A stretch of DNA of 64,000 nucleotides. Source: Alphaproteobacteria bacterium. Lineage in GTDB: Bacteria; Pseudomonadota; Alphaproteobacteria; Rickettsiales; UBA1997. The notes below the pieces were generated by a model, which saw nothing but the letters and a program-made list of their open reading frames with translations, was not told the origin of the DNA and ran no database searches. Shown piece after piece: positions 7,027-41,612 of this stretch. The stretch covers positions 59,131 to 123,130 of the forward strand of contig JAGKWR010000002.1 in assembly GCA_021151765.1 (NCBI GenBank). The letters run 5' to 3'. The position numbers were made by a program, and so were the translations under genes. Numbering within the stretch: position 1 is the stretch's first letter; each line of letters starts with the position of its first letter.

Positions 7027-8838
7027 ATGAAAGCCGAACTCAAAATTATTGCCGATCACTTACGTTCCACTTCTTTCTTGGTTGCCGACGGCGTGTTGCC
7101 AAGCAACGAAGGTCGTGGTTATGTTTTGCGTCGTATCATGCGCCGCGCCATGCGCCAACTTCACAAACTTGGTGCTAAAGAAGCTAAAATGTACAAATTG
7201 GTTGATGCTTTAATCAACGAAATGGGCGCAGCTTATCCGGAATTATCACGTGCTAAAGCTGTCATCATCGAAACTCTGAAAAACGAAGAGGAAAAATTCC
7301 GCGAGACTTTGGAAAAAGGTTTGAAAATTTTGGAAGAGGAAATTGCCAAAACTAACTCTGCTAAATTTTCCGGCGAAACCGCTTTCAAACTTTACGATAC
7401 TTACGGCTTCCCGCTTGACTTGACGCAAGATATTTTGAAAGAAAGAAATCTCGAAGTTGATATCGAAACTTTCAATCGCGAAATGGAAAATCAACGCGAA
7501 AGAGCTCGTAAAAACTGGGCTGGTTCTGGTGAAATGGCCGAAGAAAAAATCTTTTTCGACTTAAAAGAACAATTCGGCGCGACGCAATTTTTGGGCTATG
7601 AAACTTTAAGCGCCAAGGCGAAAGTTTTAGCAGTTTATCCCAATTTTATTGTGCTTGACCAAACGCCATTTTACGCCACTTCTGGCGGTCAAAAAGGTGA
7701 CGACGGCAAAATTGGCAACATCGAAATTTCTGAAACCAAAAAATTCGCTGGCGGATTATTCGCGCATTTTTTTGCTAACCAAAACTGCACTTTAAAAGTT
7801 GGCGATGAAGTTATCGCCGAAGTAAATTTTAAAACGCGCCAAGCTCGTGCTTGCAACCACTCAGCAACGCATTTAATGCACAAAGCTTTGAAAGAAGTTT
7901 TGGGAAATTCAATTTCGCAAAAAGGTTCTAACGTTGACTCTGATTACTTCACTTTCGACTTCAATTTCAATCGCGCCATGACGCCGCAAGAAATCGAAAA
8001 AGTCGAAGAAATGGTGAATACTCAAATCAAAAATTCCGCTTCTGTAAACACTAAATTAATGGGCTTGGAAGATGCGCGTAACAGCGGCGCTGAAGCTTTG
8101 TTTGGTGAAAAATACGACTCAGAAGTTCGCGTTGTAGCAATGGGAAATTCGATTGAACTTTGCGGTGGAACTCACGTTAAAAATACTGCAGATATCGAAA
8201 TTTTTAAAATTATTTCAGAAAAATCTGTCGCTTCCGGAATCAGAAGAATCGAGGCTGTAAGTGGATTTTCCGCTCAAGAATTTTTACGTCAGCAACAAGC
8301 AAAAGCGCAAAATCAAATCGCTGAATTAAAAGAAAAAATCGCCCAAAAAGATGCTGAAATTGCTTCTTTGAAAAATGCTGCGGTTGAAGAAAATCCAAGC
8401 TATTTGCTGGAAAATGACAGCAAAGTTTTGGAAGAAATTTTGAAGAAGAAAGACAAAGAAATCGAGAATCTCAAAAAGAATGCTGCTTTGGCAGAAATAC
8501 AAAATTTAAAATCGGAAAAAATTGCCGATAAAAATTTCGCGCATCACATTTTCAATAATGTTGATGGCAAAATTTTCCGCGACATTGCTACTGAAATTAA
8601 AAACAAAGCTGAGTTCAAAGATAATAGCGTGATTGTTTTATTTAACTGCGTTGCCGATTCTGCAACCGCAACAATTATCGTTTCAGCCAATATCACAACG
8701 CAAGTTAATGGTAATAATTTGTTGAAATTAATCGGCGGCAAAGGTGGTGGCAAAGCTGATTTTGTAACTGGTGGCGGCATTATTTCATCTCAAATTGCGA
8801 CCGCAATTTCTGCAATTAAAGAAAATTTAAATTCCTAA
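7027..8838 (+). CDS. alaS: alanine--tRNA ligase, C-terminal fragment (tRNA-recognition, editing and C-Ala domains; split gene)
   Basis: 603 aa. [41 protein letters not shown] aligns with E. coli AlaRS ...[38 protein letters not shown] (about residue 270 onward). Editing-site motifs HSATHLMH and CGGTH and a C-terminal [10 protein letters not shown] are present. No catalytic core is found in this ORF or upstream of it. Confidence 0.9.
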   Translation: [603 protein letters not shown]

Positions 8839-10285: not shown

Positions 10286-11185
10286 TTATGATTGAATTAC
10301 GTTAATCGCATATTTTTTAGACAAATATTTTTCAATTTCTTGACGGTCTGATTTTTTCAAGACGTTATCGAAAACAATAACTTCCATAATTTCGCCTTTT
10401 AAGCCTTGACCAACTCCATCAATTGCACCAACTGAAATTTTTGCTGTTGGAGAAACCCAAGCACTGCTAGCTACTGTTTTACTTCCTGTAGAACCATTCA
10501 TATCAGCCACTCCATTAATATAGCTGAAAACTTCTGGATTAGCCACCAATTGTCCATCAACTGAACTTGGATCAATTGTTAAGCAAATGATGCTAGCACT
10601 TCCTGCGTTTGCAACAATCTTAGCAGAACCAGTTACAGATCCAGCAACACCGTATACTAACACAACATTTCCATTTTCGTTAATTTGTACACCAAATCCA
10701 TCTTGTTCTTGTGTACCGTTATAGAAGATTGTATTTGATTGACTAAGGTCAGTAGTTCTTACAACAAAGAACATAGTGTAAGAGTTAAAAGCAGAATCAA
10801 TAACTCTCGTTCCATTAAAATGTCCAGAATCTGTTGAAACACCAGGAAGTGAATTAGTAGAGGTTGAAGCTACATATTTTGGAGAATCAGACCCGACAAA
10901 GCCATTAGTAATTGAAAGCTGAGGATTTAAATCATTCCAAACTGATAAAACTGATTTATCAGTAGCTTCAGAACTTTTAAAACTACCTTCCATACTAGTT
11001 TCTAACCAAAGGGATAAACCTTTAATACTGTTTACTGGAGAACTTTGAGTCAGAGTTTTAGCAGTAGTGATCTTAGACTGTCTTACAAGACGACTAGCTT
11101 GAGTAACACCGGCAATTAGCACCCCGATAATAAGGATAACAATCGATAGCTCAATCAAAGAAAATGCACTGAGGTTTTTTTTCAT
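10286..11185 (-). CDS. prepilin-type N-terminal signal + LamG (Laminin_G_3-like) domain protein
   Basis: 299 aa. MKKNLSA|FSLIELSIVILIIGVLIAG is a class III signal with Glu at +5 but Ala instead of Gly at -1. LWLETS...SVWNDL near the start and GEIMEVIVFDNVLKKSDRQEIEKYLSKKYAI at the end fit the LamG_3 pattern recalled from memory. Paralog of 38626..40575. Confidence 0.7.
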   Translation of the reverse strand: MKKNLSAFSLIELSIVILIIGVLIAGVTQASRLVRQSKITTAKTLTQSSPVNSIKGLSLWLETSMEGSFKSSEATDKSVLSVWNDLNPQLSITNGFVGSDSPKYVASTSTNSLPGVSTDSGHFNGTRVIDSAFNSYTMFFVVRTTDLSQSNTIFYNGTQEQDGFGVQINENGNVVLVYGVAGSVTGSAKIVANAGSASIICLTIDPSSVDGQLVANPEVFSYINGVADMNGSTGSKTVASSAWVSPTAKISVGAIDGVGQGLKGEIMEVIVFDNVLKKSDRQEIEKYLSKKYAINVIQS

Positions 11186-34700: not shown

Positions 34701-36959
34701 TCAGAGGTTCTTTCCTTTAGTATTTTTAGCTGAATTTTCTTCTTGGCTTTGCACTTTTTCACGAAAATCTGCTTTATGATTTTTACGTTCAAAAACTTTT
34801 TCGCCGCTTATTGTTTGAATTTTAAGAGGTTGCGGTGAGCGACTTGGAATTTCGATCTTTTTAGTTTCAAACTCAGTTCTTCCTTGGTCGGCAGATTGCT
34901 GATTTTTCGAAACTTCGTTTTCTTTATTCGGTTTTATCAATTCAGAATCTTGAGTTGGCGACTTTTGCTGCACATTTTCTGGTTGCAGATTTTTTAATTT
35001 TTCTTTCGATCTTTTTTCTTGTTCTGCCATCAAATAACCAATGTCTAAAACTTCAGATTTTGGCAAAACTTTTTGCTCTTTTTCTTGAGAAATTTGTAAC
35101 TGTTTTTGTTGTTGAATTGGCTTTATTGGTGCAAAATCTGTTTTGCTTTTGCTATCCAATACAACGCTGGAAGATTCTATTTTCTTATCGCCAGAATTAT
35201 CAGGAACTTTTATTTTTGATTGTTCCACCACTGTTTTGTTTGCTATTTCAGCTTTCTCAGAAACAGAGAATTTTGGTTCTATTGGTTGTTCTTTTTTAAA
35301 ATCAAATTGCACAGCTTTTTCAACAAGCTGAGGCAAAGTTTTTGATTCCGTGTTTTCTTGAGTTTTAACCTCAGATTTTTGTAATTTCTTACTATCGTTA
35401 CCTAACTCAAATACTTGATCTATTCTAACTTCAAGGCTCTGAAATGAAGTTTTTAAATCTTTAATCGGAGATTTTTTTTCGGATTCGACATCAAATTTTT
35501 TTGAATCTTGACCAACTATAGCATCACGTAAATCCTGAGTTATGTAGTTACCCTTGGCAATTGCTTGCGAAATTGCACTAACTAAAACTTCACGACGTGA
35601 AAACATCGACAACGCACCAATCATTGATGAATCAGCGTTATCAACTGCAATATCAATAATAGTTTTACTACCTTCACGATGATTGACGTTAGCACCACAA
35701 TTAATCAACAAAACTGCAATCAAAGACTGGCCAGATTTAACGGCATTAAACAGTAATTTATTGATATCTTCTTTGCTTAAATCGATTTGCAGCATTTTCT
35801 CCAGTTCAGCTATTGCAGCTGATTTGGTTTGTTTCTGTTCTTTATCGTTTTTTATTTCTGGTTGCGGTTTTTCTGCAACTTTTGACGGCTGAGAATTTTC
35901 AGCTTTTTCAGTATTTTGAATTTGACTTTGTTGCGCGATTTTAGCTAAAGCCTCGCTTAATTCTTGACGATTACTCGATTCTCTTTCTTTCGTGGAATAT
36001 GTTGTAACTTTTTGAGCAGTTTGGCTTTGAGATTGCAAATTTGATGATTTTTGTTCTGCATCACGAGTCTTTTGTTCTTTCTGAGCAGATTCTTTGGCTA
36101 ATTTTTCTCTCGCCAAAGTATATTCGTAAATCGCTTCCATTTCACGATAAATTCGCAACTGTTCTTGCTGCATTCTATCAATCTCAGCTTGCTGACGCTT
36201 CAAAGCTGCTGACTCAGCTTTTCGTTCTTTTGAATCATCATTTTTAGCTTTTTTACGAGCTTTTTCTTCTTCCTCTTTTTGGCGTGATCTTTCTTGATCA
36301 TTTTCTTGTTGTTCTGAATTTATTCCCTTAGCGCCATTTGCTTTCAAAACTTCTACAGCTTTTTGTTCACCAATCATTTCAGCAAAATCACGCGCCGTAA
36401 ATCCGTAAGAATTTTTTTCATTAACGTTAGCTCCGCGATCAATTAAAACCTGCATCTTTTCAATTTTACCGGAAAGCATCGCAGCCGTCAGCGGACTCAA
36501 ACCACATTCACCAAATTTACTTAAATCTTCTGGTTTAAGTTGGCATTTATCGAAGAATTCCATCGATTTTTCCAACGGTTTGCTTGAGGCGCAGGAAATG
36601 ATAAAAATTTCTTTAGCAATAGCTTTTACGCGGTCGCGACGCTGTTTCTCAGCTTCTACTTCTTTTTTAGTTTTGGGATTATTTGAGTTTAAATCTTGAC
36701 CTTCAGAATCTTTATCACGGGCTTTCGCACTTTCTTTTTCCAAAGCTTGCAGCTCTTTTAGATAATCGCGTAATTTTTTTGGCAAAGTTTCAATTAAACT
36801 AGCCGCTTTACGATTTTTTAACTTAGCAATATTTTCAGGTTGGAAGTTTTCATCGCGCAACAAATCTTCAATAAAGTTACGCAAATATTGCTCATCAACT
36901 TCTTCTTCCAAAGGTATGTTAAAATATTCGTCTGAATTTTGATTTGGATTATTTTTCAC
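34701..36959 (-). CDS. ankyrin-repeat protein with long charged coiled-coil / low-complexity regions
   Basis: 752 aa. ANK-like units (GLSPLTAAMLSGKIEKMQVLIDRGANVNEKNSYGFTARDFA; LLFNAVKSGQSLIAVLLINCGANVNH) separated by E/K/Q-rich stretches. Paralog of 40578..41612. Confidence 0.8.
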   Translation of the reverse strand: MKNNPNQNSDEYFNIPLEEEVDEQYLRNFIEDLLRDENFQPENIAKLKNRKAASLIETLPKKLRDYLKELQALEKESAKARDKDSEGQDLNSNNPKTKKEVEAEKQRRDRVKAIAKEIFIISCASSKPLEKSMEFFDKCQLKPEDLSKFGECGLSPLTAAMLSGKIEKMQVLIDRGANVNEKNSYGFTARDFAEMIGEQKAVEVLKANGAKGINSEQQENDQERSRQKEEEEKARKKAKNDDSKERKAESAALKRQQAEIDRMQQEQLRIYREMEAIYEYTLAREKLAKESAQKEQKTRDAEQKSSNLQSQSQTAQKVTTYSTKERESSNRQELSEALAKIAQQSQIQNTEKAENSQPSKVAEKPQPEIKNDKEQKQTKSAAIAELEKMLQIDLSKEDINKLLFNAVKSGQSLIAVLLINCGANVNHREGSKTIIDIAVDNADSSMIGALSMFSRREVLVSAISQAIAKGNYITQDLRDAIVGQDSKKFDVESEKKSPIKDLKTSFQSLEVRIDQVFELGNDSKKLQKSEVKTQENTESKTLPQLVEKAVQFDFKKEQPIEPKFSVSEKAEIANKTVVEQSKIKVPDNSGDKKIESSSVVLDSKSKTDFAPIKPIQQQKQLQISQEKEQKVLPKSEVLDIGYLMAEQEKRSKEKLKNLQPENVQQKSPTQDSELIKPNKENEVSKNQQSADQGRTEFETKKIEIPSRSPQPLKIQTISGEKVFERKNHKADFREKVQSQEENSAKNTKGKNL

Positions 36960-37018
36960 GGTTAATCTTTAAAACTTAATTTGCTTTGCAAAGCGACACT
37001 TTGTAATTTCCACGATCT

Positions 37019-37514
37019 TGTAAGGCAAGTAGATGATCGCTGGTTTTAGTTTGGTAACAAATTTGAAAATCAGAGGAAAGTCCGGACTCCTCGTCAGAAA
37101 CGATACCAGCTAACGGCTGGCCACGCAGCTTGAATAAACTAGAGCGGCTGAGGGAAAGTATCACAGAGAATATACCACCAACCATCATTGACTAGCTTGA
37201 TTTTATGCTCTCTTAATCGGAAGTGTTTAGTCGCTACCTTGATGAATTGGCCAGGGTGAAAACGCGAGGTAAGAGCTCACGCGCTTTCGTGGTAACACGA
37301 ATTTGGAAAAACCCTATCGGGAGCAAGACCAAATAGGAATGGCAGTTTAGCAATAAACAATGTTCTGACGCATGCCGTTCGGGTAGGTTGCTTGAGGTCA
37401 ACAGCGATGTTGATCCTAGATGAATGATCGTCCCGCTTACGCTTCGCTACAGCGCGGCTTTGCCCGTGTTGTTGAAGTGTTTGCGGACAGAATCCGGCTT
37501 ATTCTTGTCTTACA
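37019..37514 (+). ncRNA. rnpB: RNase P RNA, bacterial type A
   Basis: GAGGAAAGTCCGGACTCC (37073-37090), CCAGGGTGAAAACGCGAGGTAAGAGCTCACGCG, GGGAGCAAGACCAAATAGG, GGGTAGGTTGCTTGAGG, CCTAGATGAATGATCGTCC and GACAGAATCCGGCTTAT align block by block with E. coli M1 RNA. P1 pairs TGTAAGGCAAG (37019-37029) with CTTGTCTTACA (37504-37514). Ends are accurate to about 5 nt. Confidence 0.9.
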
Positions 37515-37690
37515 TTTTAAATTCCGGTGAGAGCCGGATTTTATTTATTTCTTCTGATCGCAAAACGATCAGTGGCCGGCTTATTCTTGTCTTACATTTT
37601 AAATTTCGGTGCGAGCCGGATTTTATTTATTTCTTCTGATCGCAACACGATCAGTTGGCCGGCTTATTCTTGTTTTACATTCATTAAATT
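37494..37690 (+). repeat. tandem repeat (about 82-83 bp, about 2.4 copies) of the rnpB 3' end plus terminator hairpins
   Basis: Units start at 37494, 37576 and 37659 (partial). Each begins CCGGCTTATTCTTGTCTTACA (the rnpB P1 3' strand). The two full units (1 and 2) continue with hairpin TCCGGTGAGAGCCGGA + T-rich tract and hairpin CTGATCGCAAAACGATCAG. Units 1 and 2 differ by 3 substitutions and 1 indel. Confidence 0.85.
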
Positions 37691-37777
37691 TAAAACTGCG
37701 TTTTAAATTTAGGTTAATTTCGAGTTGCTACAGGCGAAGTAAATTCGCCTATCCACAACAAAGTTTATTTTTTTAAG

Positions 37778-38563
37778 ATGCTTACTACCAACGAAATTCG
37801 TACAAAATTCCTCGATTACTTTGCCAAAAATGGCCATGAAATTATTGCGTCTAGTCCTTTGATTCCGCATAACGACCCTACTTTGATGTTTACCAACGCG
37901 GGGATGAATCAGTTCAAAAATTATTTTACTGGCGTGGAAGTTCCGAAATTCAAACGCGCAGCGACTTCGCAAAAATGTGTCCGTGCTGGTGGTAAACACA
38001 ACGATCTGGACAATGTTGGCTACACTGCCCGTCATCACACTTTTTTTGAAATGTTAGGTAATTTTTCTTTTGGCGATTATTTCAAAGAAGAAGCGATTTT
38101 TTATGCGTGGAATTTGTTGACGAAAGAATTCGGTATCAACCCACAAAAGCTTTTAGTTACTGTTTATCACAACGATGATGAAGCGGCAAATTTTTGGAAA
38201 AAAATTGCTGGTTTAAATGATGATAAAATTATTCGTATCGCAACTGACGACAACTTCTGGTCGATGGGCGACACTGGTCCTTGCGGCCCGTGCTCAGAAA
38301 TTTTCTTCGATCATGGCGATAAAATTTTCGGCGGCCCTCCAGGCAGCAAGGATGAAAATGGTGATCGTTTTATCGAAATTTGGAATTTGGTTTTCATGCA
38401 ATTTGAAAAACACAAAGACGGCAAAATGATTCCATTGCCAAAACCTTGTATTGATACTGGCATGGGCTTGGAACGTGTCACTTCAGTGATGCAAGGCGTT
38501 CATGATAATTACGAAACTGACAGCTTCAAAAAATTGATCGGCGAAATTCAAAAAATTGTGTAA
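37778..38563 (+). CDS. alaS: alanine--tRNA ligase, N-terminal catalytic-core fragment (split gene)
   Basis: 261 aa. [101 protein letters not shown] and DTGMGLERV. It ends ...[13 protein letters not shown], about where E. coli AlaRS reads ...LFRTLIQAVAKVT. Confidence 0.9.
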
Positions 38564-38625: not shown

Positions 38626-40575
38626 ATGAAAAAACCAAATATCAAAGCCTTCTCTCTGGTTGAAATCACGATCGTAATTTTAGTGATTGGTGTTATTATT
38701 GCTGGTGTGTTGGCGAGTAATGTTTTGATTAAGAAGTTTCGTATAGCTACGGCGCAGAATTTGACGCAGTCGTCACCGATTCAAGGTATTGCAGATTCGG
38801 TGTTGTGGTTGGAAACTAGTTTGGACAAGAGTTTTAAGGCTTCAGAGAGTGAGGATAAGTCGAAGTTGAGTGTGTGGTATGATGTTCGTGAGTCTATGTC
38901 TAAGAATAATGCTGTTCAAAGTGATGCTGCTTATGCTCCGAGTTATTCCAATAGTATTAATTATGTGCAAGCGGTGAAGTTTGATGGCACGAATGGTTAT
39001 TTTACGGTGGATGGCTCAGTTTTGAACAATACGAATTACACGATTTTTGTTCTAGAGAGGAGAGAGAGTAACAAGAGCGGTAATTATTTTATTGGTGATG
39101 CTTCATCTGAGAATCAATCAACTACGAATAAGAATTTAGTTTTAGGTTATAGTGCTGATGGGACGGTGATTCATTCGCAATCTAGTGATAATTCTTACAG
39201 TTCGAGTATTTCGACTTATGCGTCCTCAACTGGCAAGGCGCGAGTTTTTAGTTTTGTTCATGATAGTTCTGTGGGTAAGAAGACTTATATTAACGGACTT
39301 CTAGCTGCGACTTCGACTGATACTAATAATTTATCTGGGATGAACACTTTGACGATTGGTAAGTCTTATCAGGGTCAGATTGGCGAGATTGTGATGTTTG
39401 CTCGTGCTTTGACTGATGAAGAGAGAGAATCGGTTGAAGATTATTTGGGTAAGAAATGGAACAGCACAATTTTACGTTCTATTGGTGGATCTGCTTCATC
39501 TGGCGGTATTGGTGGAAGTTGTGTTGGCGGAACTGTCAGCGATTCGGGATGTTTGATTTCTTGTACAGTAACTGCTGCTAATGGGATCACAGCTACCACA
39601 GTTCAAGACGGATCTGGATCTTTAACTTGTAACGCTGCAGCAAATTTCACTGGTTCTTTGCCTTACTCCTGTGTCAACGGTGTCTTCCAATATACAGACA
39701 AAACAAGCTGCTCCTGCGCAACTGGTTATAATCTAACGGGCTCGACTTGTACACCAATTAACCCAAGTTGTTCAGGTGGCACCGAATCTACCACAACTAT
39801 TTCAGGAATTACTTACAAACTGCATACTTTTACATCTTCTGGAAATCTTGTTTGTACAGCTGGTGGCCGTAGTCAGGTATTAGTTGTAGCTGGTGGCGGC
39901 GGCGGTACATTTTTTGGTGGTGGTGGTGGCGGCGGCGGTGTCGTATTTAAGTCTAGCCATACTCTTACAGTCAAAACTTATAGTGTTACAGTTGGTAGTG
40001 GTGGTATTGCTAATACTTCAGCTACAACCACTCCAGTTAATGGTGGCAACTCAGTTTTTGATACTATTACCACTTATGGTGGTGGTGGCGGTGGAAATAA
40101 CTCTCTAGCAGCTGGAAAAGCTGGTGGCTCTGGTGGCGGAGCAAACAGGGGAGATGTTCCGAGCAGAGTTGGTGGTGCAGTTATTACAAATATCGCAGAC
40201 GGAGGAATTTCTTACGGAAACGTTGGCGGTGCCACAGCAAATATTACAGGTTGGGGTGGTGCTGGTGGAGGTGGAGGAGCTGGATCAGCAGGTGGTCAAG
40301 GAGGTTCTAACGGCACAGCAGCTGGAGAGGTTGGTGGTAGTGGTGGTAATGGCGTATCAATAAGTATAACAGGAACACCAACTTATTATGCCGGTGGCGG
40401 TGGTGGTGCTGTTCAGGGAAACTTAACCCCATCACCTGGTGGTTTAGGTGGAGGTGGAGCTGGAGGTCGAAATCCAGTCGCCGGAACAGATGGTTATGGT
40501 GGTGGTGGTGGTGGCTCAACTAACATACCTAAGAGAGGTGGTTCTGGTGTCGTAATTATTCGTTACGCTAAATAA
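38626..40575 (+). CDS. prepilin-type signal + LamG domain + Cys module + glycine-rich C-terminal domain protein
   Basis: 649 aa. MKKPNIKA|FSLVEITIVILVIGVIIAG. LamG_3-like region (LWLETS...SVWYDV...GQIGEIVMFARALTDEERESVEDYLGKKWN, about residues 55-280). Cys module at residues 299-382. Glycine-rich domain from ITYKLHTFTSSGNLVC...VLVVAGGGGG to GGSGVVIIRYAK. Confidence 0.75.
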   Translation: MKKPNIKAFSLVEITIVILVIGVIIAGVLASNVLIKKFRIATAQNLTQSSPIQGIADSVLWLETSLDKSFKASESEDKSKLSVWYDVRESMSKNNAVQSDAAYAPSYSNSINYVQAVKFDGTNGYFTVDGSVLNNTNYTIFVLERRESNKSGNYFIGDASSENQSTTNKNLVLGYSADGTVIHSQSSDNSYSSSISTYASSTGKARVFSFVHDSSVGKKTYINGLLAATSTDTNNLSGMNTLTIGKSYQGQIGEIVMFARALTDEERESVEDYLGKKWNSTILRSIGGSASSGGIGGSCVGGTVSDSGCLISCTVTAANGITATTVQDGSGSLTCNAAANFTGSLPYSCVNGVFQYTDKTSCSCATGYNLTGSTCTPINPSCSGGTESTTTISGITYKLHTFTSSGNLVCTAGGRSQVLVVAGGGGGTFFGGGGGGGGVVFKSSHTLTVKTYSVTVGSGGIANTSATTTPVNGGNSVFDTITTYGGGGGGNNSLAAGKAGGSGGGANRGDVPSRVGGAVITNIADGGISYGNVGGATANITGWGGAGGGGGAGSAGGQGGSNGTAAGEVGGSGGNGVSISITGTPTYYAGGGGGAVQGNLTPSPGGLGGGGAGGRNPVAGTDGYGGGGGGSTNIPKRGGSGVVIIRYAK

Positions 40576-40577
40576 AT

Positions 40578-41612
40578 TTAACGTCCCATTCCACCACCTT
40601 GGGAATTATTGCTGTGGTGAAATGGATTATTTACGTGAGATTGCAGCGATCCGGCATTGTCAATCATCTGCCCCATGACTTCACTAACTCCTCGTACGTT
40701 CTCTTTCGTAATCACACTAGCGCGATCAGCAACTATTGCTGTGATTGCCCAATTACCAGTTTTAGCAGCAGTTTGTAAAATTGTTTCTCCGCCTAAATTG
40801 GCGTTCACATTCGCTCCATCTAAAACTAAACTATTAACTGAAGTAATATCGCCACTTAAAATGGCATCGTGCAATTGTTCTTCTTTAGTTTGCGAATTTT
40901 GCGGTGATGTTTGGTTATCGTTTATCTTACCAAATAAATTCTGCGAACTGCTTTTAGCGCCATTTTCTCGCAATACTGAAGTTAAATCACGATCAATTTT
41001 CAAAATCGCAATATCCAAAGCTGACAAGCCTTCATTATTCAAAACATTGAGCTGCACACCTTCTGTAATTAGAAATTCCATCATCCATTTTTTAACTCCA
41101 ATTTTAACAGCAATATGAGCAGAATTATCACCATTTGGCGATCTAAAATTTACGTTTGCTCCGAGCATAATCAACCATTGCAAAAACTTTTTACCGCGAT
41201 TGCCCAACAAAGCTGCGCTTAAAGCGTTGAATTTACCTTTGCGATTAAATTTGTTGAGATCGGCTACATTAAACTCACAAACATCAAAAAAATTAGTAAT
41301 CTCTTCAATATCAAGGTTTGAAGCACAAGCTGTAACAAATAATTCTTGAGCAATTTCCCGCAAATTTTTTTCAAAATTCGCGCCTTCTTTTTGCAATTCT
41401 TTTTTAAGCTGCTTCAGCTGATGTTGTAGTTCTTCCAACCAAGCTTTTTGATCTAAGTTACTACCTAAATATTTGGCACCAGCTAATTTCTCTGCAAAAT
41501 TATTAACATAGTCGCGATCAAATTTATCGGCTTTGTTCTGCTTAGATTTTGGCTCATTTTTTTGCGAAGAATCTTTTACAAACCAAGAAAAAACTCTCAC
41601 AAAGAAAGCCAT
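40578..41612 (-). CDS. ankyrin-repeat protein
   Basis: 344 aa. ANK units (GDNSAHIAVKIGVKKWMMEFLITEGVQLNVLNNEGLSALDIA; LHDAILSGDITSVNSLVLDGANVNANLGGETILQTAAKTG). The N-terminal module is shared with 34701..36959. Confidence 0.8.
   Translation of the reverse strand: MAFFVRVFSWFVKDSSQKNEPKSKQNKADKFDRDYVNNFAEKLAGAKYLGSNLDQKAWLEELQHQLKQLKKELQKEGANFEKNLREIAQELFVTACASNLDIEEITNFFDVCEFNVADLNKFNRKGKFNALSAALLGNRGKKFLQWLIMLGANVNFRSPNGDNSAHIAVKIGVKKWMMEFLITEGVQLNVLNNEGLSALDIAILKIDRDLTSVLRENGAKSSSQNLFGKINDNQTSPQNSQTKEEQLHDAILSGDITSVNSLVLDGANVNANLGGETILQTAAKTGNWAITAIVADRASVITKENVRGVSEVMGQMIDNAGSLQSHVNNPFHHSNNSQGGGMGR

Follow-up and report, generated by a model that had tools for sequence, protein, structure and literature searches.

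A tandem repeat of the RNase P RNA 3′ end and its predicted terminator varies in copy number among uncultured alphaproteobacteria

We found that the RNase P RNA gene (rnpB) has its 3′ end and probable terminator repeated about 2.4 times, head to tail, directly upstream of the N-terminal fragment of a split alaS gene in the window, by which we mean the whole 64-kb stretch of DNA that was analysed. A first-pass annotation made from the letters alone had described the locus in these terms, and the description was correct. The reading that we favour, with a probability of roughly 70%, is that the array arose by tandem duplication of the rnpB 3′ end and terminator, that its copy number is unstable and is resized by slippage or unequal recombination, and that it acts at most as a set of stacked terminators. 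The duplication is real but fairly ordinary, as E. coli has the same layout.

The array at the rnpB 3′ end

The window carries a bacterial type A RNase P RNA at 37021..37516 on the forward strand (RF00010, RNaseP_bact_a; 231.5 bits against a gathering threshold of 100, E = 6e-74), and the Infernal alignment covers the full model from 1 to 367. At 496 nt, this RNA has large insertions relative to the Rfam consensus at 37163-37237 and 37448-37485, in the P12 region and between P2 and P4, which are missing from the 403-nt rnpB of the related locus L006. A putative promoter, TTGCTT-N17-TAATTT (36981..37009, forward strand), was read by eye and would drive the gene; the consensus promoter scan did not list this candidate, and identical hexamers with the same 17-nt spacing stand ahead of rnpB in L006 and L007.

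Tandem Repeats Finder placed the array at 37494-37691 with a period of 82, 2.4 copies, 93% matches and a score of 343. Infernal, which had been proposed as the means of fixing the mature 3′ end, put the end of rnpB at 37516, and the array, which starts at 37494, thus takes in the final 23 nt of the gene. The 5′ part of the repeat consists of the 3′ strand of P4, CCGGCUUA, followed by the 3′ strand of P1. The complement of the P4 strand lies at 37078-37085 (AAGUCCGG) and leaves the usual bulged U, a conserved feature of P4 in established RNase P structure, and the P1 label in Rfam is confined to 37502-37512. The first-pass annotation had the unit beginning with the P1 3′ strand; this strand is indeed present, but it is preceded by the P4 3′ strand and does not open the unit alone.

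We refer to the 23 nt taken from the rnpB end as the core and to the non-core part of the unit as X. Unit 1 (82 nt; 37494..37575, forward strand) has the true rnpB 3′ end as its first 23 nt. Unit 2 (83 nt; 37576..37658, forward strand) again contains the P4 and P1 3′ strands followed by two hairpins, and the changes relative to unit 1 are 3 substitutions and the insertion of one T, which agrees with the count of substitutions and indels given at first reading. A third copy, limited to the 23-nt core and carrying one C>T change (37659..37681, forward strand), is joined to a spacer, Z, that runs up to the alaS-N start (37682..37777, forward strand). The core 21-mer occurs three times in the window, against an expectation of 0 from 100 shuffles. 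About 60 nt separate the cores, with no cargo between them, and the copies are contiguous and head to tail. Small ORFs of 55-71 aa run across the repeats in three frames and are a product of the repeat itself.

Both full units hold two hairpins. Hairpin 1 of unit 1 (UCCGGU-GAGA-GCCGGA and then a U-rich tract; 37523..37538, forward strand) was returned by the terminator scan and folds at -11.4 kcal/mol (z = -3.1), and it is the probable intrinsic terminator of rnpB. Its counterpart in unit 2 (37605-37620, forward strand; -8.5 kcal/mol), also returned by the scan, is terminator-like and is followed by a T-rich run; the loop is of the GNRA type in both full units. Hairpin 2 has 7 bp and the form CTGATCG-N5-CGATCAG in both units; it reads CUGAUCG-CAAAA-CGAUCAG in unit 1 (37554..37572, forward strand; -9.8 kcal/mol) and lies at 37636-37654 in unit 2 (forward strand; -10.2 kcal/mol). 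It is almost unchanged in the sister strain L086, and a structurally similar hairpin stands at the equivalent place in L007. The repeat search, scans and folds together confirmed the layout first noticed, with repeats at 37494, 37576 and, in part, 37659 and two hairpins in each full unit. Spacer Z has an A/T hairpin at 37684-37712 and a G/C hairpin at 37732-37750. The latter (AGGCGAA-GTAAA-TTCGCCT) follows closely on a TTGCTA hexamer and stands 27 nt upstream of the alaS-N start, and its counterpart in L089, GCGCGAA-GTGAA-TTCGTGC, shows two compensatory pair changes; this conserved hairpin may be an operator or leader of alaS-N.

The gene downstream of the array encodes the N-terminal fragment of alanyl-tRNA synthetase (alaS-N, 261 aa; 37778..38563, forward strand; Pfam tRNA-synt_2c positions 1-257). 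It is co-oriented with rnpB and exposed to any read-through. The C-terminal part lies at 7027-8838 on the same strand (tRNA-synt_2c positions 269-549, tRNA_SAD and DHHA1), and alaS is therefore present in the window as two genes with 30 kb between them. Among the homologues of alaS-N listed, all of the best 120 (clusters at 90% identity) are standalone proteins, with lengths of 253-307 aa that mostly fall between 259 and 266 aa. This indicates that the split is fixed in a large clade of uncultured alphaproteobacteria. In many members of the clade, rnpB lies directly upstream of an alaS-N of 260-263 aa. The fragment had been called relocated, and this wording does not hold, as the split is common to a large clade and there is no local relocation peculiar to this genome. 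What sets this locus apart more than the repeat itself is the split alaS, closely linked to rnpB. In L006 (7294-7716), only 19 nt and no hairpin separate the rnpB end (7696) from the alaS-N start codon (7716), an arrangement in which alaS-N is probably co-transcribed with the RNase P RNA. Two paralogous proteins with similar prepilin-like N-termini are encoded at 10286-11185 (reverse strand) and, beside alaS-N, at 38626-40575 (forward strand); in Pfam searches the first has an N-terminal methylation motif and a weak concanavalin/LamG-like match, and the second has only a Gly_rich_2 domain. Ankyrin-repeat proteins flank rnpB and alaS-N (34701-36959 and 40578-41612), which suggests a host-associated lifestyle.

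An array of this kind could in principle be an assembly artefact of a single genomic copy, and no short-read contig crosses it: short-read assemblies break there. The way in which they break is informative. The exact alaS-N protein was found on three Logan short-read contigs, all of which start inside unit 2. In run SRR13740801, one contig carrying the upstream ankyrin gene and rnpB ends in unit 1 with the unit-1 variants present, and a second contig opens in the tail of unit 2 and continues through copy 3 into alaS-N. Contigs from two further runs have the same start in the unit-2 tail, making three runs in total. Both contig ends share approximately 27 nt that are identical between units 1 and 2. 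This pattern of break points, with unit-specific variants on either side, matches two non-identical units and not a single unit. Furthermore, arrays of different sizes were assembled through in other assemblies (L086, L090/L118, L007 and L116). An artefact is thus unlikely, and we consider a single genomic copy behind it extremely improbable. The breaks call for caution in assembly and annotation at rnpB.

Copy number and layout in relatives

Relatives were gathered by scanning genome contigs for alaS-N, by scanning metagenomes with the core 21-mer and by looking up alaS-N homologues; those recovered were uncultured alphaproteobacteria. We grouped them into species by the identity of rnpB and alaS-N to the window, and the array-bearing relatives form a small sample drawn from two species groups. 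In species 1, the window reads core-X-core-X-core(23 nt)-Z, and L086, with an rnpB 97% identical to that of the window, reads core-X-core-hairpin 1 followed by a PemK toxin cassette of approximately 500 nt. In species 2 (rnpB 83-84%), L088 reads core-Z, and L092/L093 have a core followed by the PemK cassette. In species 3 (rnpB 78%, measured for L007, L116 and L090/L118), where the non-core part is designated X′, L007 and L116 read core-X′-core(13 nt) followed by a palindromic element, L090/L118 have two identical 89-nt units followed by the identical 13-nt core and palindrome, and L119 opens at a unit junction and so has at least 2 units. The remaining loci (L089, L087/L091, L006, L108, L111/L112 and L125) have a single core; rnpB identity to the window is 73-82% for L089, L087/L091 and L006, the only ones of these for which it was measured. 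In units, the arrays measure 2.4 (window), 1.6 (L086), 1.15 (L007/L116) and 2.15 (L090/L118), and a single copy is the state of most relatives. The variation in copy number for which a comparison of related strains had been proposed was therefore found, both between sister strains and between samples of one species.

The spacer between rnpB and alaS-N harbours other insertions. The PemK cassette takes the place of spacer Z in L086 (reverse strand, ~2330-2860), L092 and L093; it encodes a 127-aa toxin of the PemK/MazF type (PF02452, E = 7e-16) with no antitoxin gene visible, and its presence or absence is polymorphic in two species, as seen in the window's sister strain and in L092/L093, the sister loci of L088. 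Long perfect palindromes (~120-150 nt) of three different kinds, resembling miniature inverted-repeat transposable elements (MITEs), lie in the spacers of different species, namely in L007 (9838-9960), L087/L091 and L111/L112, one example being ACTGTCATTCTGAGCGTCAGCGAAGAATCTC...GAGATTCTTCGCTGACGCTCAGAATGACAGT. The L007 palindrome cuts the second core to 13 nt.

L086 also differs from the window in its hairpins. Hairpin 1 of its copy 2 shows a double compensatory change, from UCCGGU/GCCGGA to UCCAGU/GCUGGA, and is intact with its U8, whereas decay has left hairpin 1 of its unit 1 at -1.9 kcal/mol (z = -0.4). On account of the compensatory change in one hairpin and the decay of the other, it seems that at least one working hairpin per array is kept. 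Given the decay of the first hairpin, the primary transcript of L086 probably contains two cores, which a pure spare-terminator view does not predict.

Origin of the array and possible uses of the extra copies

Under the tandem duplication that we favour, the duplicated segment would begin 23 nt before the rnpB end and take in the terminator hairpin and the second hairpin. Only the first 23-nt core would form part of the mature RNase P RNA, and the other cores would fall in the 3′ trailer. Once two copies were present, the array could expand, contract and be lost, being resized by slipped-strand mispairing or by unequal homologous recombination between the direct repeats. Such resizing would account for the whole-unit differences among sister strains and samples and for the single copy in most relatives, and the identity of the units involved in copy-number differences within a species points to slippage or unequal crossing-over. 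The sole likely effect would be serial, or back-up, termination between a strongly transcribed rnpB and a co-oriented alaS-N; on the sequence features described above, a terminator role is the most that we would assign to the array.

The relatives also bear on its history. In L088, the sequence directly after the single rnpB end is the same Z that follows the third core of the window, and the two Z spacers are ~95% identical, compared with ~85% for the flanking genes. The X of the window is homologous to the X′ of species 3 (L007; z = 6.2, 0/1000 shuffles), and X and X′ have the junction (G)TGG|CCGG in common. Species 2, although nearer to the window than species 3, has no X. The homology of X and X′, together with the lack of an array in the closer species 2, fits an old array that is easily lost, and the simplest history would be an old core-X-core arrangement that was expanded in the window and in L090 and deleted between cores in L088 and others. 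Comparison of Z with X revealed no similarity above shuffles (z = 0.4), and derivation of the unit from spacer Z by local duplication was rejected on this ground. Given this lack of similarity, a simple duplication in place could not have turned core-Z into core-X-core-Z: either relatives with one copy arose by deletion, or X was acquired by another route. Import of copy 3, Z and alaS-N from an L088-like genome was also rejected, as the informative sites of alaS-N follow L086 rather than L088.

A rival reading is site-specific integration, in which elements carrying their own core and a replacement terminator entered successively at the rnpB end and later lost their interiors by deletion, leaving stacked cores like those of attL and attR. 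Several observations fit: the core-Z of L088 resembles an empty site beside the core-X-core-X-core-Z of the window, X is unrelated to Z, every X supplies a terminator right after the core in the manner of elements that integrate into tRNA genes, and the same point is occupied by a polymorphic PemK cassette (L086 and L092/93) or by palindromic elements (L007, L087 and L111). However, core-Z is the sequence expected of an empty site and equally of a precise deletion between cores, and the expected traces of integration were absent. A Pfam survey of the 64-kb window (ORFs of 150 aa or more) and of the called genes on the flanking contigs revealed no integrase, recombinase or transposase domain, and in particular no tyrosine or serine recombinase gene adjoining the repeats. 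No further core copies were found in the window beyond the array, past the PemK cassette or elsewhere in 20 related loci, and the 21-mer had 0 matches in 2.9 million viral contigs. Ten 16-mer junction matches in viral contigs were set aside as chance, as none extends past 16 nt. The repeats do not bracket foreign DNA, only 60 nt lying between cores, and the layout and junction are unchanged in a species ~80% identical. In addition, the two units of L090 are identical, consistent with duplication in place. We therefore consider integration scars unlikely. The first-pass annotation had likened the layout to stacked attachment-site scars, a likeness that is not supported in view of the missing recombinase, cargo, distant core and viral attP; nor did further copies of the 21-mer mark island boundaries, as none occurs in the window beyond the array or in the related loci.

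The 60-nt non-core segment could also be a miniature mobile element, derived from a MITE or from IS200/605, that carries a copy of its target and inserted beside the rnpB terminator. It has two subterminal hairpins, it is missing from close relatives and other palindromic elements have inserted in the rnpB-alaS-N spacer. Against this, neither hairpin 2 nor the unit tail recurs elsewhere in the 64-kb window or the fetched loci, terminal inverted repeats are absent, and the units always lie head to tail at one site. We regard this origin as very unlikely.

The spot after rnpB could nevertheless be a special recombination site, since the PemK cassette and the long palindromes occupy exactly this position in relatives. 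A broader, and in our judgement unlikely, proposal is that the 23-nt rnpB end is a recombination joint at which short modules (X units, the PemK cassette and Z) are exchanged and amplified, with the number of terminator units serving as a heritable and quickly adjustable valve on transcription from rnpB into alaS-N. If this were true, the valve would govern rnpB read-through into the gene for the catalytic half of the split synthetase, and strains of the L086 type would transcribe the first unit into the RNase P RNA precursor. A precursor with an extra unit would then offer an entry route for new 3′-proximal helices into the ribozyme, and the independent E. coli architecture would reflect a general property of rnpB 3′ ends and not chance.

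A further possibility is that the extra copies are used. Read-through transcripts would pair the P1 and P4 5′ strands with a distal copy, giving RNase P RNA isoforms with an internal insertion of 82-164 nt or a regulated pool of inactive RNA. In equilibrium folding of transcripts that extend past unit 1, the 5′ strand does pair with the most distal copy, the cores are nearly unchanged, and in L086, with its first terminator hairpin decayed and its second intact, two cores are probably transcribed. However, a control with the array of E. coli K-12, where the first copy supplies the end of the mature 377-nt RNA, folds identically, which identifies distal pairing as a generic property of the nested energy model; a thermodynamic comparison of the cores as partners of the P1 5′ strand was accordingly discarded as non-discriminating, the most distal copy always winning. 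Co-transcriptional folding favours copy 1, and the first copy is directly followed by a terminator-like hairpin. Furthermore, the distal copies have CAGUGG in place of the conserved ACAGAAU linker that precedes P4, and most relatives do well with a single copy. The earlier suggestion of alternative 3′ ends thus stands in so far as distal pairing is possible in silico, and the identical behaviour of the control makes that pairing uninformative on function; we consider use of the extra copies quite unlikely. The array also illustrates that the 3′ end of RNase P RNA is not assignable from sequence repeats alone.

Comparison with known systems

Repeats in direct orientation that copy the 3′ end of a structural RNA gene are familiar as the attL and attR sites of islands and prophages in tRNA and tmRNA genes. 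The likeness extends to a gene-proximal copy that completes the gene, a displaced copy that retains the ancestral flank and a relative with an apparently empty site. The difference is that the rnpB array has no cargo and no integrase among the ORFs surveyed, that its spacing is 82 nt and that its units are identical within species. Tandem repeats tied to an RNase P RNA gene also occur in cyanobacteria, where short tandemly repeated repetitive (STRR) sequences inside rnpB were reportedly described by Vioque in 1997; those are heptamers inside a helix of the mature RNA and not duplications of the 3′ end and terminator. In its presumed fail-safe termination, the array resembles rrnB T1-T2, a pair of tandem intrinsic terminators after a highly expressed stable-RNA operon, in that at least two signals, each a hairpin with a U-tract, stand in series after a strongly transcribed RNA gene. 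Here, in contrast, the terminators are copies of each other, were duplicated with part of the gene and are polymorphic in number.

The closest parallel is E. coli, in which K-12 (NC_000913) has 3.5 copies of a 113-bp unit after rnpB that starts inside the rnpB 3′ end and contains the terminator. They were reportedly first noted by Reed et al. (Cell, 1982) alongside the sequence of the gene. Full-text literature searches returned no open-access text that describes these repeats or treats rnpB as a target for integration. Across complete E. coli genomes, the locus varies in length by steps of ~113 bp, with 4 cores in K-12, 3 in GF4-3, 2 in O26:H11 and 1 in O157:H7 and MS20657. In the 'single-copy' genomes (O157:H7 and MS20657; L106/L107 at ~700-760), the rnpB terminator is followed by TGCACAGGGTAAGATGAATAAATATCTACGG, which resembles the start of the 113-bp unit, AGATGAATGACTGTCCACGAC, and K-12 has the same flank beyond the array and its REP elements; an older duplicate, now decayed, thus seems to underlie the E. 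coli array too.

The structural features of the E. coli type of rnpB 3′-end and terminator repeat were all found in the window, and termination is predicted. In both, the unit opens within the rnpB 3′ end with the P4 and P1 3′ strands, holds a rho-independent terminator and is repeated head to tail, and copy number varies in both (1-4 cores in E. coli and 1-3 here; 3.5 copies in K-12 compared with 2.4 in the window). The E. coli unit is longer (113 versus 82 nt) and takes up ~50 nt of the gene, and the unit in the window has a second hairpin that the E. coli unit lacks. The window array precedes a co-oriented fragment of an essential gene, alaS-N, whereas the next gene in E. coli, yhaC, is convergent. 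In a blastn-short comparison, the only match to the E. coli unit was the 8-9-nt CCGGCTTA(T), and the two units share no sequence other than the universal CCGGCUUA. On these sequence comparisons, the window array is an independent analogue of the E. coli repeats and is not homologous to them. It provides a second, independent and better-sampled case of an E. coli curiosity, of little import in itself, and its natural series of 1, 1.15, 1.6, 2.15 and 2.4 units could be used to gauge how well stacked weak terminators insulate a downstream gene.
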